A stretch of DNA of 64,000 nt from Candidatus Aenigmatarchaeota archaeon (lineage in GTDB: Archaea; Aenigmatarchaeota; Aenigmatarchaeia; GW2011-AR5; JACRAC01), in assembly GCA_016213555.1 (NCBI GenBank), contig JACRAC010000011.1:8841-72840 (forward strand), given 5' to 3'. The notes under the pieces were generated by a model. It saw nothing but the letters and a program-made list of their open reading frames with translations, ran no database searches and was not told the origin of the DNA. Positions within the stretch are counted from its first letter, which is position 1, and the number at the start of each line of letters is the position of its first letter. The position numbers were made by a program, and so were the translations under genes. Positions 7,096-62,103 of this stretch are shown here, in pieces.

Positions 7096-7142
7096 ATACT
7101 ACCCACTTATCTTAAGAATATTCTCTGAAAGACTTTAATACG

Positions 7143-16061: not shown

Positions 16062-16172
16062 TCTTTATAATCACCAAAATACTTTTGTTCAAAACGTAGA
16101 CTCAAAAATATTCAACAAGTTAAATACAATAGCATAATTAGACTATGTAGGTTTTTAAATCACATATAGAGA

Positions 16173-22433: not shown

Positions 22434-23159
22434 TTATTTAGATAGTTCTGAATCTATTGCTTTTTGGAATATAGTGAAAGGTTGTGCACCTTCTATTAAT
22501 TTTCCGCTGACAAAAAATGCTGGGGTTCCAGATACTCCTAGTTTTTTTCCTTCCTTAAGATCTGCAGCAACTCTATCTGCCATTGCTCCACTATCCAAGC
22601 AACTATCAAAGTTTGTTGTATTCAGATTTAATTCAGAAGCAAATTTCTTTAAATTACTTATAGATAAAAATTCATTGTTTTCGAACATCTTATCATGTAT
22701 TTTCCAAAAAGCTTCTTCACCTCCCAAGTCTTTTGCACATTCTGATGCTTCAGCTGCCTTTTGTGCATTACTATGTATATCTAAAGGGAACTGCTTATAT
22801 ACAAATTTTATTTTTTCTGGTATTATGTATTTTTCTTTAATTTCCTGTTCTGTTGTTTTATAAAATCTTGCGCAGAAAGGACATTGAAAATCTGAGAATT
22901 CAACTACTGTTACTGTTGCGCTGCTGTTTCCTTCATAGTTGTCAGTGTCAACAGTTTTTACACTATATGGTTTAGGCACAGAATACAATGCTGCAGTAGA
23001 TGCTAAAATAATTATTAGAATGAGTGCTCCAACTATAACGTAGTTTTTGTTTATTTTAGTTTCTCTTGATCTTACTTCTTCATGTTTAGATTTTTTATGC
23101 TGTGTTAAGGCTTCGTTAGTGTCAAATGATCTTTTACATTCAGAACATTCAATTGCCAT
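22434..23159 (-). CDS. DsbA-like thiol-disulfide oxidoreductase with N-terminal cytoplasmic C2H2 zinc finger and single TM
   Basis: CSECKRSFDTNEALTQHKKSKH (C-x2-C-x12-H-x4-H), TM (VIVGALILIIILASTAAL), Trx-fold FSDFQCPFC (CxxC) and DsbA-like C-terminal helical insert. Confidence 0.75.
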   Translation of the reverse strand: MAIECSECKRSFDTNEALTQHKKSKHEEVRSRETKINKNYVIVGALILIIILASTAALYSVPKPYSVKTVDTDNYEGNSSATVTVVEFSDFQCPFCARFYKTTEQEIKEKYIIPEKIKFVYKQFPLDIHSNAQKAAEASECAKDLGGEEAFWKIHDKMFENNEFLSISNLKKFASELNLNTTNFDSCLDSGAMADRVAADLKEGKKLGVSGTPAFFVSGKLIEGAQPFTIFQKAIDSELSK

Positions 23160-28685: not shown

Positions 28686-29552
28686 CTAGTTTGTTTGTTT
28701 TTTCTTGTCTTGTCTTTCCAAATACCATCTAAGTATTCCTGTGTTTGTTAACCATGTTGCAGGGAGATCTATAAGCAACCCTACTATTAATACAAGGGCC
28801 ATTTGTTGCAATACATGAGATCCTGATACAAAATACATTGCAACTAAGGCTGCTATAGCGCATGCTGTCATCGTTACGCCTGTTTTCATTGCTGTTTTTA
28901 TTCTCTTTTCTACTGTCTCTTCCTTACGCTTTAACATTTCTGTTGTAAGAACTATATCTGTATCTACAGAATATCCTATTAACATCAAAATAGCTGCTAA
29001 TGTTGGTAATGACAACGATATTCCTAATAACTCCATTCCAAACATTGATATTACTATATCTGTAATAGCTGCAAGAATTACTGCCATTGATGGTGCAAAT
29101 GCCCTGAACAATAAAAATACTACAATAGCCATTATTATGAAGGCTGCTATCAATGCTATTTGTGCTTGTTTCCAGAAAACTTCTCCTAAAGATGGGCCTA
29201 CTTGTTTAATATCATAGTCTCCTGAAACACCTAGACTATCTAATTTATTTATTATTTCTGTTGTGTTTTTTGAGGAATCTGTTTCTATCAATAATGTTGT
29301 TTTTATACCTGTTACTGTTTTAAAAGTAGCATCTGGTATTTCAGCTGAAAGTTTGTTTATATCAGGTTGTTTATCTAGGGTCATTGATATAAGTGTTCCT
29401 CCTGTTAACTCTATGTCTCTTTTTACAGGAGATCCTGTAGTCACTGTATTATAAATCAAGAAGGATGATGCTACAATTAACACTACTATTGTTATAAACA
29501 TCAAAAATTTCCATTTTTTATGATAAAAATCCTCTAAAGACTGTAATGACAT
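28686..29552 (-). CDS. secF: Protein-export membrane protein SecF
   Basis: 288 aa; TM1, small periplasmic domain, C-terminal TM bundle homologous to SecD C-terminus. Confidence 0.8.
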   Translation of the reverse strand: MSLQSLEDFYHKKWKFLMFITIVVLIVASSFLIYNTVTTGSPVKRDIELTGGTLISMTLDKQPDINKLSAEIPDATFKTVTGIKTTLLIETDSSKNTTEIINKLDSLGVSGDYDIKQVGPSLGEVFWKQAQIALIAAFIIMAIVVFLLFRAFAPSMAVILAAITDIVISMFGMELLGISLSLPTLAAILMLIGYSVDTDIVLTTEMLKRKEETVEKRIKTAMKTGVTMTACAIAALVAMYFVSGSHVLQQMALVLIVGLLIDLPATWLTNTGILRWYLERQDKKKQTN

Positions 29553-30727
29553 TAAACCACATTGTGGGAGAAAATTTAAAAGGTTATAATTTGAGCTTTT
29601 TTATCCATTATCTTTACAATAAACAGATGTACGATGTTATTATTGTTGGTGGGGGTATAGCTGGATCTGTTCTTGCAGAAAAATTGATTAAGAATGATTT
29701 TAATATACTTGTAATAGAGAGGACTAAACGATTAAAGAAAGATAGTGGAATTGTAGCTAATAGAAATATTGGAAAGGTTATTCCTAGGGGTTTTATAGAA
29801 CATCGAATAAATGAGATGACTTTAGTTTCACCTTTTGGATTGTCTGCGAAAATTAGAACAAAAAATCCTTTTGCTTATATAATTGATAGGCAAAAACTCA
29901 ACAAATATTTTCTTAGTAAAATAGCTGGATTGATTGTATATGACCATATAAAGGATGTTGTTTGGGAAGATGGTTTTGTATCTGTTATAGGCGATAACAA
30001 AACATACTATGGTAAAATGATTATTGGTTGTGATGGTGCCAACTCTATTGTAAGAAAGAAGATGAATAAACATGATGGTTTTTATGCGGATAGTGATATT
30101 GTTTTTGGAGCTTTGGCTTTTGATAAAATAAAAACAGACTCTATACACGTATATTTTAACAAGCTTTTTTCTACTGATTTTTTTGCTTGGAAAATACCCC
30201 AAAACAACGAGTATGGTCTGATGGTTGGGAAGAGGCCAATGGATTTTTTAAATCATTTTAAGAAAAAATTTGGGTATGGTCTTAATGATGTTTTGGTTTA
30301 CCCAATGATAATAGGGTGTAAAAAATCTTATAGTGATAGATGTTTATTGGTTGGAGAAAGTGCAGGGCAGAACAAACCTATAACAGGTGGGGGTATAGAT
30401 CTTGCTATTGTTTCTGCTTACTATGCTTTCACTACAGTACTGGCTGCTTTTAAAAATAATAATTTTAGCTCTAAATTTTTAGAATCTTACCATAATATGT
30501 GGTATAAAGATTTTGGATCTGAAATAAATAGACAGATGTTTTTGAGGAAAGTTTATATGAAACTTAATAATGAGCAGATTGATGACTTGTTTAAAATTGT
30601 TAAAGATGATTTAGAAAAAACAGATTATATAGAAGACTATATAGAACTTAGCAATCTTACAAGAAAACTATCTTATAGTAGATTATTTTTATGGTCTTTG
30701 AGAAATTTTGGAACAATTATCAAATAA
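29546..30727 (+). CDS. Geranylgeranyl reductase family FAD-dependent oxidoreductase (start probably at 29627, MYDVIIVGGG)
   Basis: Dinucleotide-binding YDVIIVGGGIAGS, GCDGANS motif, ~365 aa core typical of digeranylgeranylglycerophospholipid reductase. Confidence 0.8.
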   Translation: MTLNHIVGENLKGYNLSFFIHYLYNKQMYDVIIVGGGIAGSVLAEKLIKNDFNILVIERTKRLKKDSGIVANRNIGKVIPRGFIEHRINEMTLVSPFGLSAKIRTKNPFAYIIDRQKLNKYFLSKIAGLIVYDHIKDVVWEDGFVSVIGDNKTYYGKMIIGCDGANSIVRKKMNKHDGFYADSDIVFGALAFDKIKTDSIHVYFNKLFSTDFFAWKIPQNNEYGLMVGKRPMDFLNHFKKKFGYGLNDVLVYPMIIGCKKSYSDRCLLVGESAGQNKPITGGGIDLAIVSAYYAFTTVLAAFKNNNFSSKFLESYHNMWYKDFGSEINRQMFLRKVYMKLNNEQIDDLFKIVKDDLEKTDYIEDYIELSNLTRKLSYSRLFLWSLRNFGTIIK

Positions 30728-33413: not shown

Positions 33414-33815
33414 TTATTCCAAAAGAAATTTTAAACCATATACCCTCAGACCGTTTTCATTTAACATAATTTTTCTAAATGTAATTGAGACTTCTTTATC
33501 TACTAATCCTTGTGGGTTTTTTTCAACATCTTCTATATCTACACCAGTTATTTCACCAACTATCATAGGACCTTCTTCCAGTTTTATTAATGCTGTGATA
33601 TATGGTGCTTCAAATCCATCTGGTGCTACTCTAATTATAGTATCTGAATATATTTTACCCTTTCCAGATAAACCAAATTCCTCTAGTTTTTGACTATCAC
33701 AGGAAGGACAGTTTTTCCTATTTGGAAATATAACCAATCCACAATCTAGACATTTTTTACCTATCATTTTATATTTTTCTTTATTCATTCTCCAAAATAC
33801 GGGAACTGATAACAT
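33414..33815 (-). CDS. DUF35 OB-fold/zinc-ribbon scaffold protein of the archaeal thiolase/HMG-CoA synthase complex
   Basis: CLDCG...CPSC rubredoxin-like ribbon followed by OB fold; downstream of thiolase and HMGCS. Confidence 0.75.
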   Translation of the reverse strand: MLSVPVFWRMNKEKYKMIGKKCLDCGLVIFPNRKNCPSCDSQKLEEFGLSGKGKIYSDTIIRVAPDGFEAPYITALIKLEEGPMIVGEITGVDIEDVEKNPQGLVDKEVSITFRKIMLNENGLRVYGLKFLLE

Positions 33816-33826
33816 TTTAACACCGT

Positions 33827-35014
33827 TTAATCTTTACCTAATACATGGATTACTGAGGTAGTTCCTATACCACCGATGTTTAAGGCTAAGCCTTGATTGA
33901 CATTTTTTAACTGGTTTAGGGAATCTCCTCTAATTTGTTTAGTAATATCTATTAATTGACGTACACCAGTAGCTCCTACTGGATGACCTATTGATTTTAA
34001 TCCACCAGTTGTATTTGTAGGTATTTGACCGTCTAATTTTATTTCGCCTTGTTCTATAAACTTACCTCCTTTACCTTTTTCACAAAACCCTAGATCTTCT
34101 AAGGCCACCAACTCATTTATAGAGAAACAATCATGAACTTCTGTTACCCCAATGTTTTTCATATTTACTCTATCTTTTTCAATTACTCTCTTAACTGCTA
34201 GTTTTGTAGCATCTAATTCTACTATAGATCTTCTGTTAAAAAATCCTATTCTATCTGTTGCCGCAGAGCTGCTTAGTATCCAAGCTACATTATCTAACTT
34301 ATTTTTCTTAATAAATTCTTCTGAAGCTATTATTACAGAAGCAGCACCATCTGTTATTGGTGAACAATCTAAGGTTCTTAAAGGATCTGCTATAAGTGTG
34401 GATTTTTCTACATCTTCTATAGTAATCTCTCCTCTAAACTGTGCATAAGGATTTTTAACACCGTTTTTGTGGTTATTTACTGAGATTAAGGAAAGTTGGT
34501 TTCTTGTTGTTCCAAATTCTTTCATATGTCTTCTAGCCATTAAGGCATATAATCCTGTAAATGTAAGGCCTGCTAAAGATTCCCATTCAAAATCACCTGC
34601 TTCCATTAAAGCGTTTAAAACATGATTAGAATCAATATCAGTCATTTTTTCTATTCCTAATACCATTGCAACATCCATTTCACCAGATTTTATTGTGTGA
34701 AACGCATGTCTGAATGCAAGAGCTCCTGAAGAACAAGCACCTTCACAACGAACAGCTGGTACACCTGTAATACCTACATAGTCTGATACTAAAGATCCTA
34801 AATGGCTTTGTTTTGCCATTGATCCTGCACCCATGTTCCCAACAAAAAGACCCTCTATATTTTTCTTGGTTATATTTCCTTTTGTCTGAGTATCAAGATC
34901 TTTGAAAACTGCGTTACCCGCATCTACAGCTAAATCTCTTAAAGAATGTTCCCAAAGCTCACCAAATTTACTTTGTCCAACTGCAACTATTCCTACACGT
35001 GTCATAACAATCAA
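33827..35014 (-). CDS. Acetyl-CoA C-acetyltransferase (archaeal thiolase)
   Basis: 395 aa thiolase fold with catalytic Cys region (VRCEGACSSGALA), C-terminal GHPVGATG and catalytic His/Cys region. Confidence 0.88.
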   Translation of the reverse strand: MIVMTRVGIVAVGQSKFGELWEHSLRDLAVDAGNAVFKDLDTQTKGNITKKNIEGLFVGNMGAGSMAKQSHLGSLVSDYVGITGVPAVRCEGACSSGALAFRHAFHTIKSGEMDVAMVLGIEKMTDIDSNHVLNALMEAGDFEWESLAGLTFTGLYALMARRHMKEFGTTRNQLSLISVNNHKNGVKNPYAQFRGEITIEDVEKSTLIADPLRTLDCSPITDGAASVIIASEEFIKKNKLDNVAWILSSSAATDRIGFFNRRSIVELDATKLAVKRVIEKDRVNMKNIGVTEVHDCFSINELVALEDLGFCEKGKGGKFIEQGEIKLDGQIPTNTTGGLKSIGHPVGATGVRQLIDITKQIRGDSLNQLKNVNQGLALNIGGIGTTSVIHVLGKD

Positions 35015-35096
35015 CCAATCTCTAGTTCTTCTGTAGAGAGTCTTTTAATAAAAAGGTCAATATCAACACCATATTCTTGAAACACATCTACCATAA

Positions 35097-36167
35097 TTAT
35101 TCCCTCAATAATTTTCCTCTTAGTTTTACGTATGTACCGTAGTCAACGTATTTTTTGTTATTAATATAATCTATGGTCTTTTTTCCTAATTTTTGAGCTT
35201 GTAGTATTTTGTTTGTTATCATAAATGAAAATGAATCTGATCCAGAACCAGAACCGTAAGATGTTACTAAAATTCTTTCACCTGGCTTTGCACTGTCTAA
35301 AACAGATGCAAGTCCAATAAGAGAAGCACCTGAATATGTATTTCCTATCTTTGGAACAACTAAACCTTCTTTTAATTTTGAAGCATCAAATCCTAAAATT
35401 TTTGCAGCTCTTAAAGGAAATTTAGCGTTTGGTGTATGAAAAACAACTTTATCAAAATCATCAATTCCAAGAGAAAGCTTTTCCATCAACCCTTTTGTTG
35501 CGTTTGTAACGTGTTTAAAATATGCAGGCTCTCCTGTAAACCGAGCTCCATGATTTGGGTATTTTTTCCCTTCATTTCTCCAAAAATCAGAAGTATCTGT
35601 GCCAAAAGAATATGTACCTTCTAACTCAGCTACAGGATCTTTACCAAGTATAAACGCAGCAGCTCCAGAACCAGCAGTATATTCTAAAGCGTCTCCAGGT
35701 TTTCCTTGTGCTGTGTCTGCACCAATAGCCATACCATATTCTATTTCATTTGATTTAACAAAAGCATGACAAATTTGCATTCCTGCTGATCCAGCTTTAC
35801 ATGCAAATTCTAAATCTCCCATAAATATTGTTTTTTCTTTAAAAGTGTTTCCAAAAGCGCTGCTAAAGCCTAATGCCTCTGAAACTACAGTGCTTGATGG
35901 ATTTACTGCGTATGGATGACTTTCTGACCCTATGAATAAAGCTGATATTTTAACAGGATTTATTCCTGCCCTTAAAATTGCTGTTCTACCTGCTTCAACA
36001 GACATTGTTATTGTATCCTCATCAGAACCAGCAATAGCTTTTTCATCTACTCCCAATCCTTCTAAAATTGGTAAGGCATCTCTTCCCCAAATTCTAGCTA
36101 TTTCTTCTATCTTTATTCTAAATCTAGGTACATATGATCCCCAACCTACTATTCCTGTTTTATCCAT
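35097..36167 (-). CDS. Hydroxymethylglutaryl-CoA synthase
   Basis: 356 aa, initial GIVGWGSYVP, catalytic region FDMEFACKAGSAG-like, HTPN...; gene order HMGCS-thiolase-DUF35. Confidence 0.85.
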   Translation of the reverse strand: MDKTGIVGWGSYVPRFRIKIEEIARIWGRDALPILEGLGVDEKAIAGSDEDTITMSVEAGRTAILRAGINPVKISALFIGSESHPYAVNPSSTVVSEALGFSSAFGNTFKEKTIFMGDLEFACKAGSAGMQICHAFVKSNEIEYGMAIGADTAQGKPGDALEYTAGSGAAAFILGKDPVAELEGTYSFGTDTSDFWRNEGKKYPNHGARFTGEPAYFKHVTNATKGLMEKLSLGIDDFDKVVFHTPNAKFPLRAAKILGFDASKLKEGLVVPKIGNTYSGASLIGLASVLDSAKPGERILVTSYGSGSGSDSFSFMITNKILQAQKLGKKTIDYINNKKYVDYGTYVKLRGKLLRE

Positions 36168-36406: not shown

Positions 36407-37225
36407 ATGGTATTGGAAGCTATATTGAATCCTAAAAAAGCTGAAGACAAGCCATGGCTTGTATTTTTTATAGCTGTCATACTATCTTTTCTTGCTATAT
36501 ATATTTCATGGGTTTTGTTTCCTTCACAAGCTTCTATACTTTCTGTAGCTTTTGTTACTATATTTTTTGTGCCTTTTTTTCAAAGACTTTTCAGGTTTGA
36601 AGAAAAAAAAGATGAGCTAGCAGTAAGAAAACATATGAAGCATGATAGTATATTTAAAAGACATCAAAAAGCCTTGTATGTTTATGGAGCATTTTTTATT
36701 GGAGTTATCCTTGTCTACAGTGCTGTATTTACTTTTATACCTTCTATGAGAGATGTTTTTTCACTGCAGTTAGAATGGTTTAAAGGGTCTTTTACTGGAC
36801 AGGCTGTTGAGGCAGGTAATTTTGCAAGATATTTTGTTAATAATACACAGGTCATGCTGATATTTTTTATATTATCAATAGTTTTTGGGGCTGGAGCAGT
36901 TTTTATTCTAAGTTGGAACGCGTCTGTAATAGCTGTTTACTTGGGAATTGTAGTAAATAAATTTATACCTGCTTTAGGAGTATCTACAGCTTATGTGTAT
37001 GGATTTACTATTGGTGCTGGCTCGATAATTTTCCACGCCATACCAGAGATAGGAGGATATTTCTTTGCCGGCATAGCAGGTGGAGTCCTCTCTATTGCCC
37101 TGCTTAGAGAGAAATTTATGTCAAAAGAGTTTAAAGAGGCTGGTAAAGATGCTATGGTGTGGTTTGTTCTTGCAGAAGTATTAATAATAATAGGAGCTCT
37201 TATAGAATCCAGATTTATAATTTAA
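36407..37225 (+). CDS. Integral membrane protein, DUF95/SpoIIM-like
   Basis: 272 aa, ~6 TM helices; weak family resemblance only. Confidence 0.35.
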   Translation: MVLEAILNPKKAEDKPWLVFFIAVILSFLAIYISWVLFPSQASILSVAFVTIFFVPFFQRLFRFEEKKDELAVRKHMKHDSIFKRHQKALYVYGAFFIGVILVYSAVFTFIPSMRDVFSLQLEWFKGSFTGQAVEAGNFARYFVNNTQVMLIFFILSIVFGAGAVFILSWNASVIAVYLGIVVNKFIPALGVSTAYVYGFTIGAGSIIFHAIPEIGGYFFAGIAGGVLSIALLREKFMSKEFKEAGKDAMVWFVLAEVLIIIGALIESRFII

Positions 37226-37770
37226 TTTAGACAGTTTTCTAAGTTTTGATGTACTTCTTCTAGAAAATATTTATATTGACTAGGAATATCTTTTTCTATT
37301 ATTTTTATTTCATCTTTCTTTTTATCTATCCATCTTATAGGATCTTTTAGATGTTTTGCATCAAAAGAATTATCATACATATCTGCAAGTCTTATTATTT
37401 TTACTTGCCAAGGCTGGGTTTTTAATCTGGATAAATATTCCGCATGTCTTTGATCTTTTGATAATCTACTGTCTATGCTTAACCCAGAGACATAGTTTGC
37501 TACATTTTCTCCAAATCTACCTGATATTTCATCATAATCTGTTTGAGTGTCCTCTATAGTATCGTGTAAAAGAGCAGCAGCTAGAATTTCTGGATCATCT
37601 ATTTTTAATTTTGTTGCTAGTATTGCGAATATTCTTAATGGATGTACTACAGATGGTGTTATACCATCTTTTCTTGTCTGGCCATCATGACAGATAAGGG
37701 CAAATCTCATAGAATCTCTAACTTTTTTGATATTGTATATTTGATCGTTTACAACAGACATAAATATCAT
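37222..37770 (-). CDS. Small alarmone hydrolase-like HD-domain protein (Mesh1/SpoT-hydrolase family)
   Basis: FALICHDGQTRKDGITPSVVHPLRIFAILA...AAALLHDTIEDT...IIRLADMYDNSFDA is collinear with the RelA/SpoT HD hydrolase domain and metazoan MESH1 (H..GQ.R.., HP, AALLHDxxEDT, KLAD..N); 182 aa single domain. Confidence 0.75.
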   Translation of the reverse strand: MIFMSVVNDQIYNIKKVRDSMRFALICHDGQTRKDGITPSVVHPLRIFAILATKLKIDDPEILAAALLHDTIEDTQTDYDEISGRFGENVANYVSGLSIDSRLSKDQRHAEYLSRLKTQPWQVKIIRLADMYDNSFDAKHLKDPIRWIDKKKDEIKIIEKDIPSQYKYFLEEVHQNLENCLN

Positions 37771-37779
37771 CTAATTCTT

Positions 37780-39096
37780 TCACTCTCCTCTGGCCAACCT
37801 AATATGAGATTCTGCAAGTTCGTATGTGTTGGCTTGTGCACATAACAAATTTAGATCTTGTGCAGTAACAGCTGCTGCGATAATTTCAGCAAGCTTTCGT
37901 GCATTATCTCCTGGTGATATTCCTGCTCCTGCGCATCCAATAATATCCAGACATTCTTTGGCAGTTCCAAATTCAGTACCTCCGCCTAGTGTGGCAACCT
38001 CTAAACACGGGAGAGATGCACCAAAAGCAAGATATTTTTCACCGTCTTTTTCTATTATTTCAGCATCAATGAAGCAGCTAGAACTTTCTGTAAGCTGTGC
38101 ACAATCTTGTCCTGTTGCTACAAAGAAGGCTGCTATTGTATTTGCTGCATTTGCATTGAATCCAGAGGTCGTTCCTGCAAGCGCAGATCCTCTGTAGTTT
38201 TTCAGATAATTAAGTTTAGCAACAGTTTCAGCGTCTATACCAAAATGTTTTTTAATTAAACTAGCTTTTATAAAAATCTCAGTTTCAATAGATTTACCAC
38301 GACCAAATATTATATTAGTATGTGTTGCTTTTTTGTCTGAGCACATGTTTGCAGTAAGACTTCTTATTTTAACATCTGGATGACGCTCTATAAGGGCCTT
38401 TATGGCATTTGCAGAATATTTTGTAGCAGAATTCATTCCCATTGAGTCGCCGGTTTCAAAACCAAATCTTATATGTAAGAAACGACCTTGTTGAAAAGGT
38501 ATCATTTCTTTTACAACAGATACTTTAGATTCTTCTTCTGCAGCTTGTTTTAGAAGCTTATACAAGTATCCTTTGTTTTTTATTTCATCATAAAGCATCT
38601 TGGCTTCTTTTATATCAGAACATTCTACTAACGGAGCTCTAGTCATACAATCTTTGACAACAACGGTATTTACTCCACCAGCTTCATTTAGTATTTTTAT
38701 ACCTCTGTTTATTCCAGCAATTAATGCTGCTTCATTGGTTGCTAAAGGTAGAACAAAGTTACCTTTAGCATATTCACCATTTATTTTTAATGGAGTTGAG
38801 ATACCTAAAGGAGTTATACAACCACCTATTTGTTGTTCAATGCCAGTTGTCTTTGTTGAACTATGATTTTTACAAACTTTTACGTAAGCATTTTTAATAG
38901 AAGGAAATGTCTTACCTGTATTATTTTCTATAGTTTCTAATCTCCATTCTGTTGCTAATTTGTTTGACAGCTCCCAGTTATTACAGGATTCGAATATTTT
39001 TTCTTCTAGTAAATAAGGTTTTATTTTTCCTAGTTGAAAGTCTTTTTTAATAGATTCTAAAACTTTTTCAAGAGCCGGCTCTTTTAGATCAGTCAT
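37780..39096 (-). CDS. hmgA: HMG-CoA reductase (class I type)
   Basis: 438 aa, DSMGMN motif, GTEFGTAKE... region, C-terminal His catalytic region; mevalonate pathway context. Confidence 0.9.
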   Translation of the reverse strand: MTDLKEPALEKVLESIKKDFQLGKIKPYLLEEKIFESCNNWELSNKLATEWRLETIENNTGKTFPSIKNAYVKVCKNHSSTKTTGIEQQIGGCITPLGISTPLKINGEYAKGNFVLPLATNEAALIAGINRGIKILNEAGGVNTVVVKDCMTRAPLVECSDIKEAKMLYDEIKNKGYLYKLLKQAAEEESKVSVVKEMIPFQQGRFLHIRFGFETGDSMGMNSATKYSANAIKALIERHPDVKIRSLTANMCSDKKATHTNIIFGRGKSIETEIFIKASLIKKHFGIDAETVAKLNYLKNYRGSALAGTTSGFNANAANTIAAFFVATGQDCAQLTESSSCFIDAEIIEKDGEKYLAFGASLPCLEVATLGGGTEFGTAKECLDIIGCAGAGISPGDNARKLAEIIAAAVTAQDLNLLCAQANTYELAESHIRLARGE

Positions 39097-39125: not shown

Positions 39126-39647
39126 CTATATTTGGTCTAAGAATTCTATAGAAAATCCCTTTTCTTGGGCAAATTTTTTCCCAATATTACCCTTATTGTC
39201 AATAACATCTTTTAGATGTAAAAAAGTCCATCCTTTTCTTGCAATCTTCCAAGCTATATATGCTGACGCACCTGCTTTTTCTTGCCAGTCAAGAAGTTCC
39301 TGGAGCTGTTCTTTTTCTACTGTAAAGGCAGCAGCTCTTGATTTACATTCAATTACTATCAGTTTTCCTACTTTCGCAGCTACTATATCTGGTGATGGAA
39401 GACCAATTCTTCCAGAACGAGGGGCTCTGATAGCCATATATCCCATACTAGCTAGTTTGTGTGTTAAACTCAGTTCTGCAATATAACCTTTTCTATAACT
39501 TGCTGTCATGAGAATATTTTGAATTAATCGCTTATATTGATTTAGACCAATTTGTAAAAAATTTTTGTGATCTTGTTTACTAAACTCTTTATTTAAGCCT
39601 TGAAGCCTTAATAGTTTTATAACAGGTGAATTAGAAATGAAATTCAA
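39126..39647 (-). CDS. hjc: Holliday junction resolvase Hjc (probable true start at 39509, giving ~127 aa)
   Basis: GYMAIRAPRSGRIGLPSPDIVAAKVGKLIVIECKSRA matches Hjc catalytic core (S-G...D...E-x-K); the annotated N-terminal 46 aa overlap the divergent CBS gene. Confidence 0.7.
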   Translation of the reverse strand: MNFISNSPVIKLLRLQGLNKEFSKQDHKNFLQIGLNQYKRLIQNILMTASYRKGYIAELSLTHKLASMGYMAIRAPRSGRIGLPSPDIVAAKVGKLIVIECKSRAAAFTVEKEQLQELLDWQEKAGASAYIAWKIARKGWTFLHLKDVIDNKGNIGKKFAQEKGFSIEFLDQI

Positions 39648-40247: not shown

Positions 40248-40712
40248 ATGCGTATTAAGGTCATTATTATGGAAAGAATTAAGAACCAGTTTTATGAACA
40301 ACAGTATAATATAGAATCAGAAGATCCTTATGCAATAGCTTTAGAATTTATTAATTTCATGGCTAATTTTGGAGAAATTAACGTCACTAAAAATATTATC
40401 TCTAATACAGGAGCTGAGAAAAGCGCAGAAATACATTTTTACTTGGAAAGAAGATTTGATAGATATTCAAAACTTTTTTTCTTGTTTAAAATAGATGTTG
40501 ACATATCATCAAAAAAATTGAATATATCAGCTCTTGGTATGAATCAACTTCAAATACCTGTTGGAGGCCAGGTTGGTGATGTATTTCAGGAATGGTATAT
40601 GAAAGAAATTCAACCAGAAATACATAAAAAATCTATAAAAATTATAAAAGAAATAACAAAAACTGTTGAAAAATATATATATGAGATAGCGGAAAATACA
40701 CCTAAGCAATAA
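40248..40712 (+). CDS. Hypothetical protein
   Basis: ORF only, 154 aa, no recognised motif. Confidence 0.3.
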   Translation: MRIKVIIMERIKNQFYEQQYNIESEDPYAIALEFINFMANFGEINVTKNIISNTGAEKSAEIHFYLERRFDRYSKLFFLFKIDVDISSKKLNISALGMNQLQIPVGGQVGDVFQEWYMKEIQPEIHKKSIKIIKEITKTVEKYIYEIAENTPKQ

Positions 40713-45898: not shown

Positions 45899-47287
45899 AT
45901 GGCTACAAACTACTGCATATTTCTTAGCGATTTGAAGGGGAATCCAACTTATTTAATGGAATCTTTGCATAAACATCTTCCTAAAGACTGGAAATTTCAT
46001 CTTGTGTTTAGGTTCAAATTAAACTACTTGTCTGAAGATAAATACTCTCATATAAAACCTTTTTATCTCTATGATAATTTTAAACAGCTTTCTGAAAAGG
46101 ATGTTCAAGACGAGGAAAAATTTCTTGGAAAAACTTTCGCTTTGATACGTCTAATGAGTAAGGTAGGTCAGTATAGGTACCCTAATATAAAAAAACTTCC
46201 TGATGACTACTATTTTGCTAATTTAGTAAGATCTTGGAGAAAATTTTATTTGTCTAATAAAATAAATCTTTTTTTGGCAGGTGTTAGTGATGATTATCCT
46301 AGTCTTATAGGATTTGAAGTTGCTAGAAAACTAGGGATAAAAATAATTATACTTAACTCTAGCAGATTTACAAATGCCTATTTGTTAACAGATGAAGATT
46401 ATCAACCTATTTTCTATAAAAAAATAACTGAAAAAGAGAAAAAATTATCATACCACCAGGCCGAAAAAATAATAATGGGAGAGAAAATAAATAATCCAGA
46501 ACTTTCAAAAATAGTCAAGAAAAACTTTAACTTTATAAATCCTCTAAATCTTTTGTCTGTTGCAAAATCATTTTTTCCAAATTTTAAAATTTATTATCTA
46601 GAGGTTCCAAAATATGATAGACTTTCTTGGTACTCTACATTTGAATTTGTCGTAAAGTATATAAAATCTTTTATACGCTCTGCCATCTCAAAACAAATAT
46701 TTAAATACAAACCAAAAAAAGGAGAAAAATATATTTTTTATCCATTACATTTTACTGATGACGCTACTATAACAGCTAAAACGCCTTTTATAGATCAATT
46801 TCAGCTTATAAAAGAAATATCAAAAATAATACCTCATGGGGTATTATTGTATGTTAAACCTCATCCACATTTTCAGTGTTCTGACATTCCAATATCAAAA
46901 ATGAGAGAACTATCTAAGTTACCAAATATCAGACTATTGTCTTATAATGAAGATACTAAGCAATTAGTTAAAAATGCCTTATATGTAGCTGTTATAAATT
47001 CTAGCACTGCTTTTGAGGCTATGATAATTGGTACTCCAGCAGTAACTTTTGGAAAGGATTATCCAAATGAAATAGTAAAACATATTAAAAGTCCAGAAGA
47101 GCTTTTGAATATAAAACCAACCCTTGATAAGAAAAAAGCATACGATTACGTATCTAAATGCTATGCAAATTCAATATTTTTGAGGGTTCCATACTATCTA
47201 AAGTTTGATTTTACAGGAAATTCTGACATTAAAGATTTAGCAAAAGGTATTGTCCAATCATATAATATGTTATGTAAAGGGGGTTGA
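45899..47287 (+). CDS. Capsule-polysaccharide-biosynthesis (KpsC/KpsS, PF05159-like) family glycosyltransferase, paralog 1; putative CMP-ulosonic-acid transferase
   Basis: IFYPLHFTDDATI and LYVKPHPHFQCSDI motifs resembling KpsS/KpsC (LQVxxDSQI / KxHP), C-terminal INSSTAFEAMIIGTPAVTFG; tandem paralog follows. Confidence 0.5.
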   Translation: MATNYCIFLSDLKGNPTYLMESLHKHLPKDWKFHLVFRFKLNYLSEDKYSHIKPFYLYDNFKQLSEKDVQDEEKFLGKTFALIRLMSKVGQYRYPNIKKLPDDYYFANLVRSWRKFYLSNKINLFLAGVSDDYPSLIGFEVARKLGIKIIILNSSRFTNAYLLTDEDYQPIFYKKITEKEKKLSYHQAEKIIMGEKINNPELSKIVKKNFNFINPLNLLSVAKSFFPNFKIYYLEVPKYDRLSWYSTFEFVVKYIKSFIRSAISKQIFKYKPKKGEKYIFYPLHFTDDATITAKTPFIDQFQLIKEISKIIPHGVLLYVKPHPHFQCSDIPISKMRELSKLPNIRLLSYNEDTKQLVKNALYVAVINSSTAFEAMIIGTPAVTFGKDYPNEIVKHIKSPEELLNIKPTLDKKKAYDYVSKCYANSIFLRVPYYLKFDFTGNSDIKDLAKGIVQSYNMLCKGG

Positions 47288-48697
47288 ATGAGAGTATCTA
47301 TATATTACGGAACTTGTTTTGATAGGGATTTTCATAAAGTAACTATAGCTAATGGATTTAGTAAGAATACGGACGTTATAGTTGTAAAAAGATTTGATCA
47401 CAAGCTTGATATTACACATCCAAAATTAAAAGAAATATATATGCATAACGATTTAATATTTACAAAAAAACTATCCGATAAAGTAATACATGACACAGAA
47501 CAGTGGCTAGAAGTACCATTCGTACTATTACTAAAATATTGGTATAATTGGGATAATTCTTTAGAAAAAAACAATAAAGAAATGAGAAAAAGATACGAGG
47601 CTATTTCGAAGTATGTGGTATTTTGGAAAAGCTTCTTCAAAAAATATAGACCAAACGTATTTGTTACTACAATGGAAAGTACGTTCCCTGAAATAGTAAG
47701 CATAGAAGTTGCAAAAAAGCTTGGGATAAAAGTTATCATAGTAAATAGTGGAAGAATAGGAAATACCTTCTTACTTTATAACGATAAATTTTTACCTATA
47801 TATTGGAGAAAAATATCTCAGCACGAGAAGAAGACATATTATGAATCTATAAGAAAAAGATACAGAACAAAGGCAGAACCAGAATCTATGAATCTTAGCA
47901 ATGATGTAAATAATTACGTAGACTTCACTCCTTTTGGAATTAAAAACAAATTGATTGATTTTTTAAGATATAGAAAAAACTACAAAAAAATGCATACTAT
48001 AGATAAATTAAGGACATTAAGTCCATTTCAGCTTTTCAAGAAAGTATCTACTGGGATTTTTAGGAGGACTTATGCGTCTTTCTTTTATGAAAATTTTGAT
48101 TATCAGAAAGAAAAATTCATATTTTTCCCTTTGCATTACACAGATGAGGCTGCCTTGTCTTATCAGGAAGCTTTTTTGGATCAGTTTGAGTTGATAACAA
48201 AAATATCTAAATGCCTTCCTTTAGATGTATTTTTAGTTGTAAAACCTCATCCACATTGGAGATGTATGGATATTCCTATATCAAAAATAAAAGAATTAAA
48301 GTCAAATCCAAGAATTAAATTCATATCACCTGATGTTAATGTTTATAAACTAATTAATTTCAGCAAAGGTGTAGTTACAATAAATTCCACAACTGGTTTT
48401 GAAGCATTGGCTTTGGATAAACCCATAATAACTTTTGGACATGATTTTTATGCTGATCCTAATATAGCTAAAACAATATACGACCTTAATTATCTTCCAG
48501 AAGCAATACGTGATATGATAGACGGGAAGCTAAAAATAAATAATAAGAAACTTTCAGAATTCTTTTCTATTTACTATAAACATCTAATTTTCATAAAAGG
48601 TAGAATGGGTTTGTACGTAGATATAACTGAAGAAGATGGGAGAGCTGTAGCAAAAAACATTGAGGAATATATAACTTCTTCTAAAAAAAGTTTTTAA
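47288..48697 (+). CDS. Capsule-polysaccharide-biosynthesis (KpsC/KpsS-like) family glycosyltransferase, paralog 2
   Basis: IFFPLHYTDEAAL, VVKPHPHWRCMDI, INSTTGFEALALDKPIITFG; collinear with preceding ORF. Confidence 0.5.
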   Translation: MRVSIYYGTCFDRDFHKVTIANGFSKNTDVIVVKRFDHKLDITHPKLKEIYMHNDLIFTKKLSDKVIHDTEQWLEVPFVLLLKYWYNWDNSLEKNNKEMRKRYEAISKYVVFWKSFFKKYRPNVFVTTMESTFPEIVSIEVAKKLGIKVIIVNSGRIGNTFLLYNDKFLPIYWRKISQHEKKTYYESIRKRYRTKAEPESMNLSNDVNNYVDFTPFGIKNKLIDFLRYRKNYKKMHTIDKLRTLSPFQLFKKVSTGIFRRTYASFFYENFDYQKEKFIFFPLHYTDEAALSYQEAFLDQFELITKISKCLPLDVFLVVKPHPHWRCMDIPISKIKELKSNPRIKFISPDVNVYKLINFSKGVVTINSTTGFEALALDKPIITFGHDFYADPNIAKTIYDLNYLPEAIRDMIDGKLKINNKKLSEFFSIYYKHLIFIKGRMGLYVDITEEDGRAVAKNIEEYITSSKKSF

Positions 48698-48728
48698 TAC
48701 ATTCACGCTTATTAAATTATGTGACACA

Positions 48729-49694
48729 ATGGATCTAACTATAGATATGGAAAAAATGAGGCCTTCTGGATTTCATAATTATGTTAAGAAAAGAAGAGAC
48801 GATTTGATAGATAGGGTTAACAAAGGTTCTGATTGGACTCCTGTCAAAGAATGTCCTGTTTGTAAAAATATGTCAAACAACCAAAAATATTTTGATTATA
48901 GAGGTATTGTTTCTTTTGTATGTGATAAATGCGATTGTTTATATGATGATAAGGTACCTGTTTCTGTAGAAGATGTATATGATAATGTAGATTATTTAGA
49001 GCATACGAAAAAAACATCTTATATAAAAGAATATGAATATAGAAAAAATCGTTTTGGATTTGAGAGGGCTAATATAATTGAAAGTTCTCTAGGTAGTCTA
49101 AAAGGTAAAAGAATTCTTGATATTGGGTGTGGAACAGGTCTTTTTCTGGATGTTATGACTAAATTTGGTGCTGTTCCTGATGGATTAGAAATATCAAAGC
49201 CGCTTGCTGAATATACAGCAAAAAGACTTGGTATAAAAGTATTTACTGAAGATTTTATGGGTTTTAGCTCTGATTATAGATATGATGTTATAACAATGTT
49301 TGATCTTATAGAGCATATAAAAAATCCATTGGATATGCTACAACGTGCTAAAGAATTATTGAATAAAGGAGGAATTATTCTTGTATTTACACCAAATTAT
49401 AGATCAATAGCTTTTGAAATCTTAAAAAATAATTCTAATCTCTATATACCTACAGATCATTTATTATTTTTTTCTAAAAAGACCGTAGACTTTTTGGCAA
49501 AGACACTAGGCATGGAACTCTCGATGTATTCAACCAACGGAATGGATGCGTTTGATCTGTTGTCTTTCGATAGGGATATAAATAATATTGATATAAGTAA
49601 CTCTATACTTTTGAATAACATAAATAAAGTCCAAGATACTATTAACATCTCTGGTTATGCAAACCACATGAGATTTATATTAAAAAAGGTGTGA
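48729..49694 (+). CDS. Class I SAM-dependent methyltransferase with N-terminal Cys4 zinc ribbon
   Basis: CPVCKN...CDKCDC ribbon, motif I ILDIGCGTGLF, 321 aa. Confidence 0.75.
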   Translation: MDLTIDMEKMRPSGFHNYVKKRRDDLIDRVNKGSDWTPVKECPVCKNMSNNQKYFDYRGIVSFVCDKCDCLYDDKVPVSVEDVYDNVDYLEHTKKTSYIKEYEYRKNRFGFERANIIESSLGSLKGKRILDIGCGTGLFLDVMTKFGAVPDGLEISKPLAEYTAKRLGIKVFTEDFMGFSSDYRYDVITMFDLIEHIKNPLDMLQRAKELLNKGGIILVFTPNYRSIAFEILKNNSNLYIPTDHLLFFSKKTVDFLAKTLGMELSMYSTNGMDAFDLLSFDRDINNIDISNSILLNNINKVQDTINISGYANHMRFILKKV

Positions 49695-50860
49695 TAATGA
49701 AATCAGACAACTATTCTTATAAAGTTCGTTTAAATGTTAGATTTGGATTTGGTATTTGTAGAAATATAGGAGAATATTTGAAAAAATCTGGTTTAAACAA
49801 CGTAGGATTTATAATAGATAGAGGTGTTTTTTCTTCTGAACCTGTAAAAGCTATGATAAAATCTGCGCAAGACCATTGCTCTGTAAATAAAGTATACGAA
49901 TGTAGCTTAGTCGAACCTACATATGATGAACTAGATGCTATTACAGAAGAATTTAGAAACCAAAAATTCGATGTAATAATAGGAGTAGGAGGAGGAAGTA
50001 TTATGGATACAGCAAAAGGAGTTTGCGCTCTTATTACAAATCCTGGAAAGGGGATTCAATATAGAGGGTTTGATTTATTGAAAAATAATCCAATACATAT
50101 GATAGCTGTTCCTACAACTGCAGGTACTGGAAGTGAAGTTACTCCAAACGCAGTTTTCACAGATAGTAATGAACAGAGAAAATTAGGTATTAATGGAGAT
50201 AAAATGTTTGCTTACATGTCTTTTCTAGATCCAGAACTTACTATGACATGTCCAAAAAGACCTACTGTATCATCTGGCATGGATGCAATTGTACATACTT
50301 TGGAAAGCTTTGGATCTATTGCAGCAACACCATTTTCTAGAATGTATTCTAGAGAAGCTTTTAGGCTACTTTTTAATTCACTACCTAAGTTAGTGGATAA
50401 CATGAATGATAAAGATCTTAGATCAAAAATGCTTTTAGGAAGCCATTATGCTGGAATAGCTTTGTTTAATGCTAGTGCGGGGCCTTCTGGAGCACTATCA
50501 TATCCGTTAGGAGTTTTATTTAAGGTTCCTCACGGAATTGCAGGAGCGGTCTTTTTGCCAAAGGTTCTAAGAAAAAACGTGGAGATGGGGTATTATGGAT
50601 ATTCAGAGTTGTACGATCTTATTGATGGTGCAAACATGTCTCTTTCTGAAAAAGAAAAAGCATTTGCATTTTGTGATGCTTTAGATACTTTATGTAATAA
50701 AGTTGAGATTCCTGACAAGCTTACTGTTTTTGGTGTTACAGAAAATGATATAGATATACTTCATAAACAAACGGTCACTGGGTTGAAGGCTGCAATAGAT
50801 CATAATCCAGTGAAATTTGAAGATAAACATATTAGAGAAATACTAGAAAATATGATCTAA
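49691..50860 (+). CDS. Iron-containing alcohol dehydrogenase family oxidoreductase
   Basis: GGGSIMDTAKG dinucleotide/metal motif, His-rich C-terminal helical domain (HTLESF..., HYAGIAL), 389 aa. Confidence 0.75.
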   Translation: MIMKSDNYSYKVRLNVRFGFGICRNIGEYLKKSGLNNVGFIIDRGVFSSEPVKAMIKSAQDHCSVNKVYECSLVEPTYDELDAITEEFRNQKFDVIIGVGGGSIMDTAKGVCALITNPGKGIQYRGFDLLKNNPIHMIAVPTTAGTGSEVTPNAVFTDSNEQRKLGINGDKMFAYMSFLDPELTMTCPKRPTVSSGMDAIVHTLESFGSIAATPFSRMYSREAFRLLFNSLPKLVDNMNDKDLRSKMLLGSHYAGIALFNASAGPSGALSYPLGVLFKVPHGIAGAVFLPKVLRKNVEMGYYGYSELYDLIDGANMSLSEKEKAFAFCDALDTLCNKVEIPDKLTVFGVTENDIDILHKQTVTGLKAAIDHNPVKFEDKHIREILENMI

Positions 50861-50876
50861 ATTTAGTTGTATACAT

Positions 50877-51977
50877 ATGTTAATCAAAATAGACAATATA
50901 TCTATAGGTAATTCTAATAAATGTTTTGTTATAGCAGAAGCTGGTGTAAATCATAATGGAGATATAGAAAAAGCATACGAATTGATAGATGCTGCAGTGG
51001 ATGCTAATGCAGATGCTGTTAAATTTCAGACATTTAAGACCGAAGAAATAGCAACAATAGATGCAAAACAAGCAACTTATCAAAAAATTAACATGGGAAA
51101 AGAAGAATCCCAATATGAAATGTTAAAACGTCTTGAATTAAGTTATCAGGATTTTAAAAACTTAAAAAAGTACTGTGACAAAAAAAATATACTTTTTATG
51201 TCAGCTCCTCATTCTTGTAAAGAAGATGTAGATTTGGTTGCAGCTCTTTGCCCAGTTATAAAAGTGCCAAGTGGAGATCTGACAAACTTACCTATCTTAA
51301 AATATATGGCTGAAAAAAGAATTCCTATAATTTTGTCAACAGGAATGTCTAACATGGAGGAGATAAAAGAGGCTTTAGACATTATTACACCAATTAATAA
51401 ACAACTTATAATTCTTCATTGTACATCAAACTATCCAACTCCTTTGAATGAAGTTAATTTGAAAGCTATGAAAACAATTGAAAAAGCGTTTGGATTTCCA
51501 GTAGGTTATTCTGACCATACAATGGGTACAGAAATAACAGTTGCCTCTGTTGCAATGGGTGCATGTGTTGTAGAAAAACATTTTACATTAGATAGGAATC
51601 TTCCAGGACCTGATCATAAGGCATCTCTAGAACCAAATGAGCTAAAAAAAATGGTTAATGAAATACGTAATGTAGAAAAGAGACTAACTCAAGGCATCTC
51701 TCCAGAAAAAATATTAAAAGAACTCAATCTTTTAGATTCTATGGGAGATGGTGTCAAAAAACCCCAACTCTCTGAAATTGAGGTTATGAGAGTTGCAAGA
51801 AAGAGTTTAGTAGCTGCCGTAAATATACCTGAATACACAATAATAACAGAAAAAATGCTTGCAATAAAAAGACCTGGTACTGGATTACATCCAAGAAATT
51901 ACTGGAGTCTTATAGGTAAAAAAGCTAAAACAAACATTAAAAAGGATGAAATGCTTGATATTAAAATGATAGCATGA
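50877..51977 (+). CDS. Nonulosonic acid synthase (NeuB/LegI/PseI family) with C-terminal SAF domain
   Basis: CFVIAEAGVNHNGDIEKA...DAVKFQTF TIM-barrel NeuB signature; SAF antifreeze-like C-terminal domain; 366 aa. Confidence 0.85.
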   Translation: MLIKIDNISIGNSNKCFVIAEAGVNHNGDIEKAYELIDAAVDANADAVKFQTFKTEEIATIDAKQATYQKINMGKEESQYEMLKRLELSYQDFKNLKKYCDKKNILFMSAPHSCKEDVDLVAALCPVIKVPSGDLTNLPILKYMAEKRIPIILSTGMSNMEEIKEALDIITPINKQLIILHCTSNYPTPLNEVNLKAMKTIEKAFGFPVGYSDHTMGTEITVASVAMGACVVEKHFTLDRNLPGPDHKASLEPNELKKMVNEIRNVEKRLTQGISPEKILKELNLLDSMGDGVKKPQLSEIEVMRVARKSLVAAVNIPEYTIITEKMLAIKRPGTGLHPRNYWSLIGKKAKTNIKKDEMLDIKMIA

Positions 51978-52927
51978 AGAAAAATATAAAAATAATTAGA
52001 AGTGCTGTAGGCAGTATGCCTTCATGGGGTCTTATAAAAGAACTCACCAAAAACAATGTAGATATTGTTGGAATTGATAGCAGTCCAATTTCTTTTGGGT
52101 TATATTTGTTGAAAAAAAGTTATGTCGTGCCAAAAGGTAATGACCCAAATTTTATAAATTCTCTCATAAATATAGTTAAAAAAGAAACCCCGGATGCAAT
52201 TATTTCAGGACCAGAAGAAGAAATACTTAATATTTCTAAAAATAAAAGTTTACTGGAAAATAGTGGTATGCTTGTTTTATGTCCAGATTTTGAATCAGTT
52301 GAGATATGTGCAAATAAAAGAAAAACTTACAAATTCTTTAAAAATAATAATATTCCTACACCAGAAATATTTGATGAAGAAAAAAGAGTTAAATTTCCAT
52401 GCGTAGTAAAACCAATTTTTGGAAGAGGGGGTGCAGGTGTATATGTAGCTAATAACCAGGAAGAACTAAGATATTATTTGTCTAAATCAAAAGATTTTAT
52501 TATACAAGAATATGTTGCTGGCACTGAATATACTGTTGATGTTCTTGCAGATAGAGATGGTAATTCATTATCAATTGTTCCTAGAATAAGACTTGGTATA
52601 GAGTCTGGAGTTTCTGTAAAAGGTAAAACCGTATACGACAAAAAAATAATAAATTATGTACAACTTATAGTAAAAAAATTGAAATTATTTGGACCTTCTT
52701 GTATACAGTGCATAAAAAGTTCTGACAGTCTTAAGTTCATAGAAATTAATACACGATTTGGAGGGGGGTCAATACTTTCAATGAAAGCAGATCCTACCAT
52801 AGTACAAAATTTAATAAGAATAATAAGAGGAGAGACTCCTAGAAAAAATAGAACATTCAAAAGAAATCTTATCATGTTACGATATTATTCTGAGATGTTT
52901 TTACAGGAAAAAGATATTAAGAAGTGA
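51974..52927 (+). CDS. ATP-grasp domain ligase
   Basis: 317 aa with ATP-grasp segments (KPIFGRGGAGVYV, IIQEYVAGTEYTVDV, IEINTRFGGG). Confidence 0.7.
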   Translation: MKKNIKIIRSAVGSMPSWGLIKELTKNNVDIVGIDSSPISFGLYLLKKSYVVPKGNDPNFINSLINIVKKETPDAIISGPEEEILNISKNKSLLENSGMLVLCPDFESVEICANKRKTYKFFKNNNIPTPEIFDEEKRVKFPCVVKPIFGRGGAGVYVANNQEELRYYLSKSKDFIIQEYVAGTEYTVDVLADRDGNSLSIVPRIRLGIESGVSVKGKTVYDKKIINYVQLIVKKLKLFGPSCIQCIKSSDSLKFIEINTRFGGGSILSMKADPTIVQNLIRIIRGETPRKNRTFKRNLIMLRYYSEMFLQEKDIKK

Positions 52928-52931
52928 TTTT

Positions 52932-54595: not shown

Positions 54596-54599
54596 TTAA

Positions 54600-55766: not shown

Positions 55767-55806
55767 ATTTATACAAAATTTCTATATTTAAGATTATATT
55801 GTAAAT

Positions 55807-59391: not shown

Positions 59392-59395
59392 ATAA

Positions 59396-60025: not shown

Positions 60026-60029
60026 TTTA

Positions 60030-62097: not shown

Positions 62098-62103
62098 TAT
62101 AAT

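Follow-up and report, generated by a model that had tools for sequence, protein, structure and literature searches.

We analysed a 64-kb stretch of DNA (the window) from contig JACRAC010000011.1 of a Candidatus Aenigmatarchaeota archaeon and found that it contains a stand-alone gene of the RelA/SpoT homolog (RSH) superfamily, the product of which has the fold and the intact active site of a Mesh1-like small alarmone hydrolase (SAH). The gene has bacterial affinities, occupies a defined insertion site that lacks it in sister genomes, and, judged by its substitution pattern, is kept under strong purifying selection. That it encodes an active RSH-type hydrolase acquired from bacteria is, in our assessment, very probable. 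A first-pass annotation had described the gene as a Mesh1/SpoT-type SAH homolog in an archaeon; the observation is confirmed here, and the interpretation placed on it is partly supported. The gene under study is:

37222..37770, (-) strand: stand-alone gene for an RSH-type hydrolase (SAH), an open reading frame (ORF) with matches to Pfam HD_4 and HD.

Counted from its first ATG, the ORF is 182 amino acids long and lies exactly where it was first placed. The NCBI model (MBI4895160.1) begins at Met4 and is 179 aa long, and an ortholog from a related locus (L005) begins at the same position, so that the true start is more likely to be Met4 at 37761. The Pfam model of the RelA/SpoT HD domain, HD_4 (PF13328), which the first-pass annotation had named as a check, matches the protein at E=5e-12 and 46.3 bits against a cut-off of 27.2, and the general HD model (PF01966) matches more weakly at 2e-05. 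These are the sole domains above threshold. A long bifunctional RSH was rejected because the synthetase (PF04607), TGS, and ACT domains are all absent from the protein. Consistent with this architecture, the models TIGR00691 (spoT_relA, 4e-19) and NF008303 (SpoT, 2.7e-17) match it through their N-terminal hydrolase part alone, and a Clostridia Rel from another locus (L003) aligns with it through Rel residues 31-162 only. NCBI gives this 179-aa hydrolase-only protein the product name 'bifunctional (p)ppGpp synthetase/guanosine-3',5'-bis(diphosphate) 3'-pyrophosphohydrolase', which is incorrect. The same 'bifunctional' misnomer is attached to a bacterial relative, P0264.

A sequence search of the Protein Data Bank (PDB) returned 23 matches, all 23 of them RSH hydrolases, with Drosophila Mesh1 (2.7e-18) first, followed by Acinetobacter baumannii SpoT (6e-18) and human MESH1 (2.5e-14). 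When the search was made with a family profile that combined the protein with 109 relatives (110 aligned sequences), human MESH1 came out on top (3.7e-51, 177 bits), with lower scores for Lmo0812 (115 bits), SpoT (112), RelH (100), and PaSAH (87). The AlphaFold2 (AF2) model of the protein has ten helices with a pLDDT of 96.4 and a pTM of 0.91. Foldseek comparison of this model with the PDB gave 48 matches at E<=1e-3, each one an RSH hydrolase domain, and the top five were fly or human Mesh1 (TM-score 0.77). From the sequence matches and the predicted fold we identify the gene product as a single-domain hydrolase of the RSH superfamily, a Mesh1-like SAH. We give hardly any credence to the alternative that it is a generic HD phosphohydrolase (a YfbR-type 5'-nucleotidase or similar) with a superficial likeness to SpoT, an outcome that the first-pass annotation had named as fatal to its identification: PF01966 does match, but HD_4 scores far above it, no generic HD or YfbR-type enzyme appears among the significant profile, PDB, or fold matches, which are RSH hydrolase domains throughout, and the RSH-specific motifs beyond the HD pair (R33/K34, E73/D74, and D130...N134) are kept.

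All of the motifs reported in the first description of the protein are present: H28-D-G-Q31-T-R33-K34, H43-P44, A64-ALLHDTIEDT-75, and R127-LAD130-MYD-N134. The codons of the predicted active site are:

37549..37566, (-) strand: H69-D70-T-I-E73-D74, the HD metal ligands and the ED catalytic pair, invariant (n=110).

37669..37674, (-) strand: R33-K34, for purine stacking and ribose/5'-phosphate contacts, mapping to human MESH1 R24/K25.

37642..37653, (-) strand: S40-V-V-H43, in which H43 is a metal ligand and S40 stands in place of Tyr.

37369..37383, (-) strand: D130-M-Y-D-N134, the fourth metal ligand and the phosphate-contacting Asn, mapping to human MESH1 D122/N126.

Among the 110 aligned homologs, H28, R33, H43, H69, D70, E73, D74, D130, and N134 are invariant (110/110) and K34 is at least 90% conserved. 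Residue roles in human MESH1 (hMESH1), including the contact of Y32 with the scissile phosphate, come from the MESH1-NADPH structure (10.1101/325266). In our alignment the hMESH1 metal ligands H35, H61, D62, and D122 correspond to H43, H69, D70, and D130, the catalytic pair E65/D66 to E73/D74, and the substrate contacts R24/K25, K97, and N126 to R33/K34, K105, and N134. Because the metal and catalytic residues map one-to-one onto hMESH1, the archaeal enzyme should be active. One position departs from this pattern. At position 40 (codon 37651-37653), the equivalent of hMESH1 Y32, the three known archaeal orthologs have Ser, Ser, and Phe, whereas all Mesh1, SpoT, Rel, and Lmo0812 references and 105 of the 107 bacterial relatives keep the Tyr. 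Lys occupies position 105 in the archaeal trio, as it does in metazoan Mesh1, and most of the bacterial relatives have Glu or His there.

Metazoan Mesh1/MESH1 (HDDC3; 3nqw, 3nr1, 5vxa, 9chy) is the best match of the archaeal protein in both sequence and fold. Both have about 180 aa and a single all-helical HD domain, the metal ligands and ED pair are identical, the equivalents of R24, K25, K97, and N126 are kept, and both occur in organisms without a known (p)ppGpp synthetase. However, the two are ~25-27% identical and form separate clades in neighbor-joining (NJ) trees, in which human and fly Mesh1 group with P0119 and P0100, apart from the archaeal trio. They differ further in that Tyr32 is Ser or Phe in the archaea, the archaeal loop between helices alpha8 and alpha9 is shorter or unalignable, and the archaeal gene lies behind the HMG-CoA reductase gene (hmgA) in a predicted prokaryotic operon. 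Thus, the original identification as a Mesh1/SpoT-type SAH homolog holds for domain, fold, and motifs, and on the NJ trees it does not extend to orthology with metazoan MESH1.

The hydrolase domains of long RSH enzymes (A. baumannii SpoT, 7qpr/7qps; Thermus thermophilus Rel, 6s2u; RelSeq, 1vj7) share the fold and the six hydrolase motifs, and the HD domain of SpoT is 33-36% identical to the archaeal protein, but the latter ends after the HD domain and has none of the synthetase, TGS, and ACT regions. Characterized bacterial SAHs (Pseudomonas aeruginosa PaSAH, 6yvc; Corynebacterium glutamicum RelH, 7qoc/7qod; L. levettii SAH, 7qoe; and the (p)ppApp hydrolase of B. caccae, 7smg) are likewise single-domain RSH hydrolases of the same fold (TM-score 0.55-0.79). 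They belong to other SAH subfamilies and score lower, with 27-33 bits as against 69 for fly Mesh1 in the single-sequence PDB search and 62-100 bits as against 177 for human MESH1 with the family profile.

The host is a DPANN archaeon of the Aenigmarchaeota, in agreement with the archaeal origin assumed at first. Eight proteins encoded near the SAH gene have identical counterparts deposited under Candidatus Aenigmarchaeota archaeon. The window encodes a family-B DNA polymerase (PolB), the PolD small subunit, Cdc6/Orc1, the Holliday-junction resolvase Hjc, Cdc48, a RadA-like ATPase, and topoisomerase IA, together with SecDF, a DnaG-type Toprim protein, STT3/AglB, and geranylgeranyl reductase. 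Its thiolase, HMG-CoA synthase, and DUF35 trio is of archaeal type, and its HMG-CoA reductase has a graded series of Aenigmarchaeota homologs. By contrast, the nearest named relatives of the SAH belong to Gemmataceae, Gemmata, Planctomycetota, Phycisphaerales, and Verrucomicrobia, and the contigs that carry them have 60-72% GC. These stand-alone HD_4 hydrolases (for example P0262, P0025, P0064, and those of loci L001 and L002) are 41-45% identical to the archaeal protein and have the same length and motifs, and in the trees the archaeal trio branches either from among them or beside them. They differ in base composition, in their unrelated gene neighborhoods, in retaining the Tyr, and in having mostly Glu or His at the site of K105.

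We built NJ trees on ~174 columns. The archaeal trio was monophyletic with a bootstrap of 100, and in a first sample it grouped with P0005 and P0006, of a family that contains Planctomycetota-named proteins, with a bootstrap of 95. With denser sampling the trio joined the whole Planctomycetota clade with a bootstrap of only 30. Since this sister relation is weak, we describe the donor as 'PVC-like bacteria' (Planctomycetes-Verrucomicrobia-Chlamydiae) and no more finely; most likely, from the trees, it was a relative of the Planctomycetota or Verrucomicrobiota. Relatives of the SAH are also encoded on 425 viral contigs. The best of these is 45% identical, and delivery by a virus was rejected for want of a close viral source.

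The position of the gene is defined by its neighbors:

33414..36167, (-) strand: HMG-CoA synthase, acetoacetyl-CoA thiolase, and a DUF35/OB-fold scaffold protein (Pfam and NCBI names).

36407..37225, (+) strand: SpoIIM-like membrane protein (Pfam SpoIIM, 3.3e-13), convergent with the SAH gene.

37780..39096, (-) strand: HMG-CoA reductase, hmgA (Pfam HMG-CoA_red, 5.4e-94), immediately upstream of the SAH gene.

39126..39647, (-) strand: Hjc Holliday-junction resolvase (Pfam Hjc, 1.1e-20), 29 nt upstream of the HMG-CoA reductase gene.

Close versions of the SAH are rare. Among 5.8 billion clustered proteins there are three, namely the one in the window and two that are 81% and 75% identical to it, with identities of 75-82% across the trio; after the 75% ortholog, identity falls to ~45%. 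The order Hjc, HMG-CoA reductase, SAH, convergent SpoIIM-like gene, HMG-CoA synthase, thiolase, and DUF35 is common to all three loci, which were assembled independently from several groundwater metagenomes and show the same order in NCBI, Logan, ENA, and JGI data. Between the SAH in the window and its two orthologs, the ratio of nonsynonymous to synonymous substitution (dN/dS) is 0.048-0.101 with dS saturated, a range indicative of strong purifying selection. The window has 31% GC, and the SAH gene, with 29.7% GC and 15.8% GC at third codon positions (GC3), matches the genes around it.

Sister Aenigmarchaeota lack the gene at this site. In one with the same gene order and a reductase 72% identical to that of the window (L015), the reductase stop codon abuts the SpoIIM gene and there is no SAH. 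In a second (L016; reductase 63% identical) the slot holds a non-coding spacer, and in a third (L014; reductase 77% identical) it holds an unrelated 116-aa ORF (2861-3211) without a Pfam match. A tblastn search of sister genomes L014-L017 for a remnant of the SAH found none. Because sisters with the same order lack the gene and its nearest relatives, at ~45% identity, are bacterial, we conclude that this is an old bacterial transfer. The most parsimonious account is that a gene from bacteria was inserted once, long ago, in the ancestor of a narrow Aenigmarchaeota clade, where it is now fully ameliorated.

The spacer of L016 (7290-7670) contains about six short hairpins that are separated by TGTACA-like hexamers, in units of ~28 nt, and a gene for a Y2-type transposase lies just upstream of the reductase in that genome. 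The run of hairpins is possibly a small repeat element that marks a recombination-prone site. The junction between the reductase and SpoIIM genes seems to accept foreign genes repeatedly.

It is true that the nearest non-archaeal relatives of the SAH are bacterial, but we regard an artefact, either a bacterial contaminant in an archaeal bin or a decaying pseudogene, as next to impossible and reject it: the contig, 74.5 kb long and rich in archaeal marker genes, carries the gene near its middle, the gene's surroundings recur in the independent NCBI, Logan, ENA, and JGI assemblies, its GC3 is that of the host, its reading frame is intact, and its dN/dS is 0.05-0.10.

Within the locus, the genes are tightly packed. 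In the window, 9 nt separate the reductase stop codon from the first ATG of the SAH gene and 18 nt separate it from Met4, and at the same junction the relatives have a 13-nt overlap (L004) or a 29-nt gap (L005). At the other end, the stop codons of the SAH and SpoIIM-like genes overlap by 4 nt. The upper mevalonate cluster surrounds the SAH gene, and its order is kept in L004, L005, L015, and L016. There is no space for a promoter of the SAH gene outside the reductase coding sequence, for which reason the SAH is likely to be co-transcribed with hmgA. The Hjc gene as listed encodes 173 aa from a TTG start and overlaps the start of a divergent CBS gene. Its orthologs in L004, L005, L015, and L016 are 124-135 aa long, making the window version ~45 aa longer, and the real start is probably an internal Met, with the listed TTG too far upstream.

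The first-pass annotation reported no synthetase domain near the gene, and this holds for the whole 64-kb window. We took 60 non-overlapping ORFs of at least 110 aa as the genes of the window, and no match to the RelA_SpoT synthetase domain (PF04607) was found among them. We also used E. coli RelA and the Clostridia Rel from L003 as phmmer queries against six-frame ORFs of at least 40 aa from the window, from 16.5-kb syntenic stretches of two relatives, and from two PVC loci. In none of these did the synthetase region find a match; the Clostridia Rel matched hydrolase domains only. E. coli RelA matched nothing in the window, not even the HD domain of the SAH, because the HD domain of RelA is itself degenerate. 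The PVC loci, from Verrucomicrobia (L001) and Phycisphaerales (L002), have no synthetase domain within ~8 kb of their SAH relative. PVC bacteria are described as having no long RSH enzymes (Atkinson et al. 2011, PMC3153485). This whole Mesh1-like family may work without the classical partner of the stringent response.

We propose that the SAH is an enzyme for stand-alone clean-up or salvage of 3'-(pyro)phosphorylated purine nucleotides and would not be one half of a make-and-break switch of the stringent response, a role suggested by the lack of a partner synthetase nearby. In this mechanism H43, H69, D70, and D130 would hold one Mn2+, R33 would stack on the purine base, and K34 and K105 would hold the ribose and the 5'-phosphates. 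A metal-bound water, placed by E73/D74 and N134, would then remove the 3'-pyrophosphate of (p)ppGpp or (pp)pApp, or alternatively the 2'/3'-phosphate of a similar nucleotide. By analogy with the characterized enzymes, we propose with confidence that the chemistry would be attack by Mn2+-bound water on the 3'-pyrophosphate or 2'/3'-phosphate of a purine nucleotide. The bacterial gene would have been acquired once, by the ancestor of the narrow clade, and inserted between hmgA and the convergent SpoIIM-like gene; it would then have taken on the base composition of the host, come under strong purifying selection, and probably been transcribed together with hmgA. We consider this explanation as a whole, with its family assignment, chemistry, transfer, and clean-up role, to be reasonably probable. 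As a rough split of physiological substrates, compounds of the (p)ppGpp/(pp)pApp type come first with somewhat less than an even chance, cofactors of the NADPH/PAPS type (PAPS, 3'-phosphoadenosine 5'-phosphosulfate) are a distinctly smaller prospect, and other substrates are about as unlikely as the cofactors or slightly more so.

The alternative that fares best, although we think it unlikely, is that the enzyme is mainly a MESH1-like cofactor phosphatase that takes the 2'- or 3'-phosphate off NADPH, PAPS, or possibly coenzyme A (CoA), its position behind hmgA being a link to the mevalonate pathway. Synthetases are missing from Metazoa as well; MESH1 there is about as efficient on NADPH as on ppGpp (PMC9166373; 10.1101/325266), and it also acts on PAPS (PMC12934728), with PDB 9chy among the top fold matches of the archaeal model. 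The hMESH1 residues that contact purine, ribose, and 5'-diphosphate (R24, K25, and K97) have their equivalents in R33, K34, and K105, and it is at K105 that the trio resembles metazoan Mesh1 and differs from most bacterial relatives. Linkage to hmgA is tight in three of three genomes, and HMG-CoA reductase depends on both NADPH and CoA. However, the NADPH contacts of hMESH1 are kept only in part or ambiguously: K97 is retained, the Tyr that holds the 2'-phosphate (Y32) has been replaced, and the nicotinamide contacts around the alpha8-alpha9 loop (W138, H141, R142, E145, and Y146) are placed differently by HMMER and MAFFT. Furthermore, the SAH stands outside the metazoan Mesh1 clade, the unrelated ORF in the same slot of L014 suggests a permissive insertion site rather than functional coupling, and the bacterial relatives show no link to the mevalonate pathway.

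A more specific form of this alternative, in which the hydrolase has taken on a new task as a cofactor phosphatase that is tied to the synthesis of isoprenoid lipids through co-transcription with HMG-CoA reductase, is in our view quite unlikely. If it were true, dephosphorylation of NADPH, CoA, or PAPS would tune the supply or ratio of cofactors for the mevalonate enzymes encoded around the SAH gene, and the change of Tyr to Ser or Phe together with the retained Lys105 would mark a switch of substrate. The enzyme would then be a prokaryotic counterpart of metazoan MESH1 in its role independent of alarmones.

Stand-alone SAHs, which are common in phages and prophages, are known to neutralize toxic small alarmone synthetases (toxSAS; 10.1101/575399), raising the alternative that the archaeal gene is a counter-measure against such enzymes, either as a type IV antitoxin or as protection against (pp)pApp/ppGpp effectors or defenses of neighbors and viruses. 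The protein matches PHROG 990 at 2.8e-25, and the 425 viral contigs with relatives also fit this idea. Nevertheless, we find it highly improbable. Unlike in a toxSAS-SAH type IV module, the adjacent genes encode HMG-CoA reductase and the SpoIIM-like protein, and neither next to the SAH gene nor anywhere else in the window or the relatives' flanks was a small alarmone synthetase or toxSAS gene found. The neighborhood is one of core housekeeping genes and not a mobile or defense island, the best viral relative is distant (45%), and stable vertical inheritance at one chromosomal site is unlike that of toxin-antitoxin or defense genes.

Several points weigh against the reading that we prefer, an imported hydrolase that clears 3'-(pyro)phosphorylated purine nucleotides. 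No synthetase that could supply (p)ppGpp was found in the 64 kb of the genome that the search covered, although one may be encoded elsewhere. With Ser, Ser, and Phe in place of the Tyr at the contact to the scissile phosphate, the archaeal enzymes may differ in specificity or be less active. That the gene is transcribed with hmgA is deduced from gene spacing, and the donor was assigned from NJ trees of the length given above, in which the strict grouping of the trio with the whole Planctomycetota clade had only 30% bootstrap.

The SAH gene is less surprising in an archaeon than the first-pass annotation implied. Archaeal SAHs were catalogued by Atkinson et al. (2011, PMC3153485), who listed Mesh1-L of Methanococcoides burtonii, pbcSpo of Natronomonas pharaonis, and divSpo of Methanosarcina barkeri and attributed them to bacterial transfer. 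A later survey (2021, PMC8407392) reported RelA/SpoT homologs, as bacterial acquisitions, in 19-69% of the genomes of Diapherotrites, Woesearchaeota, Pacearchaeota, and Nanoarchaeota. The protein itself was already labelled by NCBI as a (p)ppGpp enzyme. As described, the catalogued proteins resemble the one studied here in being stand-alone RSH hydrolase domains of sporadic occurrence that came from bacteria. They differ in lineage, as Aenigmarchaeota are absent from the DPANN phyla listed in PMC8407392.

Other parts of the window deserve mention. Many DPANN archaea are thought to depend on a host for lipids. The window has a fairly full set of genes for membrane lipids (15255-16796, 29546-30727, 33414-36167, and 37780-39096), comprising thiolase, HMG-CoA synthase, DUF35, HMG-CoA reductase, geranylgeranyl reductase, CDP-alcohol phosphatidyltransferase, and phosphatidylserine decarboxylase. 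A sugar-modification cluster of ~18 kb (45899-63643) encodes two Capsule_synth proteins, a methyltransferase, an iron-containing alcohol dehydrogenase (Fe-ADH), the nonulosonic acid synthase NeuB, ATP-grasp and HAD proteins, several epimerases/dehydratases, a UDP-GlcNAc 2-epimerase, a PIG-L deacetylase, a hexapeptide acyltransferase, two DegT aminotransferases, a CMP-sugar cytidylyltransferase, and RmlD- and RmlC-like enzymes. This cluster is probably a pathway to a sialic-acid-like glycan for surface glycosylation. STT3/AglB and glycosyltransferases are encoded at 3622-7805. The window also encodes two redox proteins that are unusual for an archaeon with a small genome: a thioredoxin-fold protein that resembles DsbA and begins with a zinc finger of the C2H2 type (22434-23159), and a 682-aa thioredoxin-DsbH protein (DUF255; 1450-3498). 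Pfam gave no match for six ORFs of 137-611 aa (4703-5812, 7802-9637, 14849-15283, 18393-18875, 21223-21636, and 40248-40712), and the last of these, of 154 aa, adjoins the CBS gene in all of the related loci. An Rfam scan of the whole window gave no match.

Since stand-alone RSH hydrolases of archaea and RSH homologs of DPANN were already documented as bacterial imports, the kind of transfer seen here has been described for other archaea and the general picture is unchanged. What is added is a precise insertion event with empty-site relatives, a PVC-like affinity, linkage to hmgA, and a clade-specific loss of the Tyr, and a misleading database name is corrected. With occupied and empty sites at the same locus, this is a clean and datable case of a bacterial RelA/SpoT-family hydrolase that became fixed in a DPANN archaeon. 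It poses the same puzzle as metazoan MESH1, namely what role an 'alarmone hydrolase' has where no alarmone is made, the partner synthetase being apparently absent. The protein is small and soluble and should be easy to express and assay, and its natural substitution at a conserved substrate-contact Tyr could inform how enzymes of this family choose their substrates.

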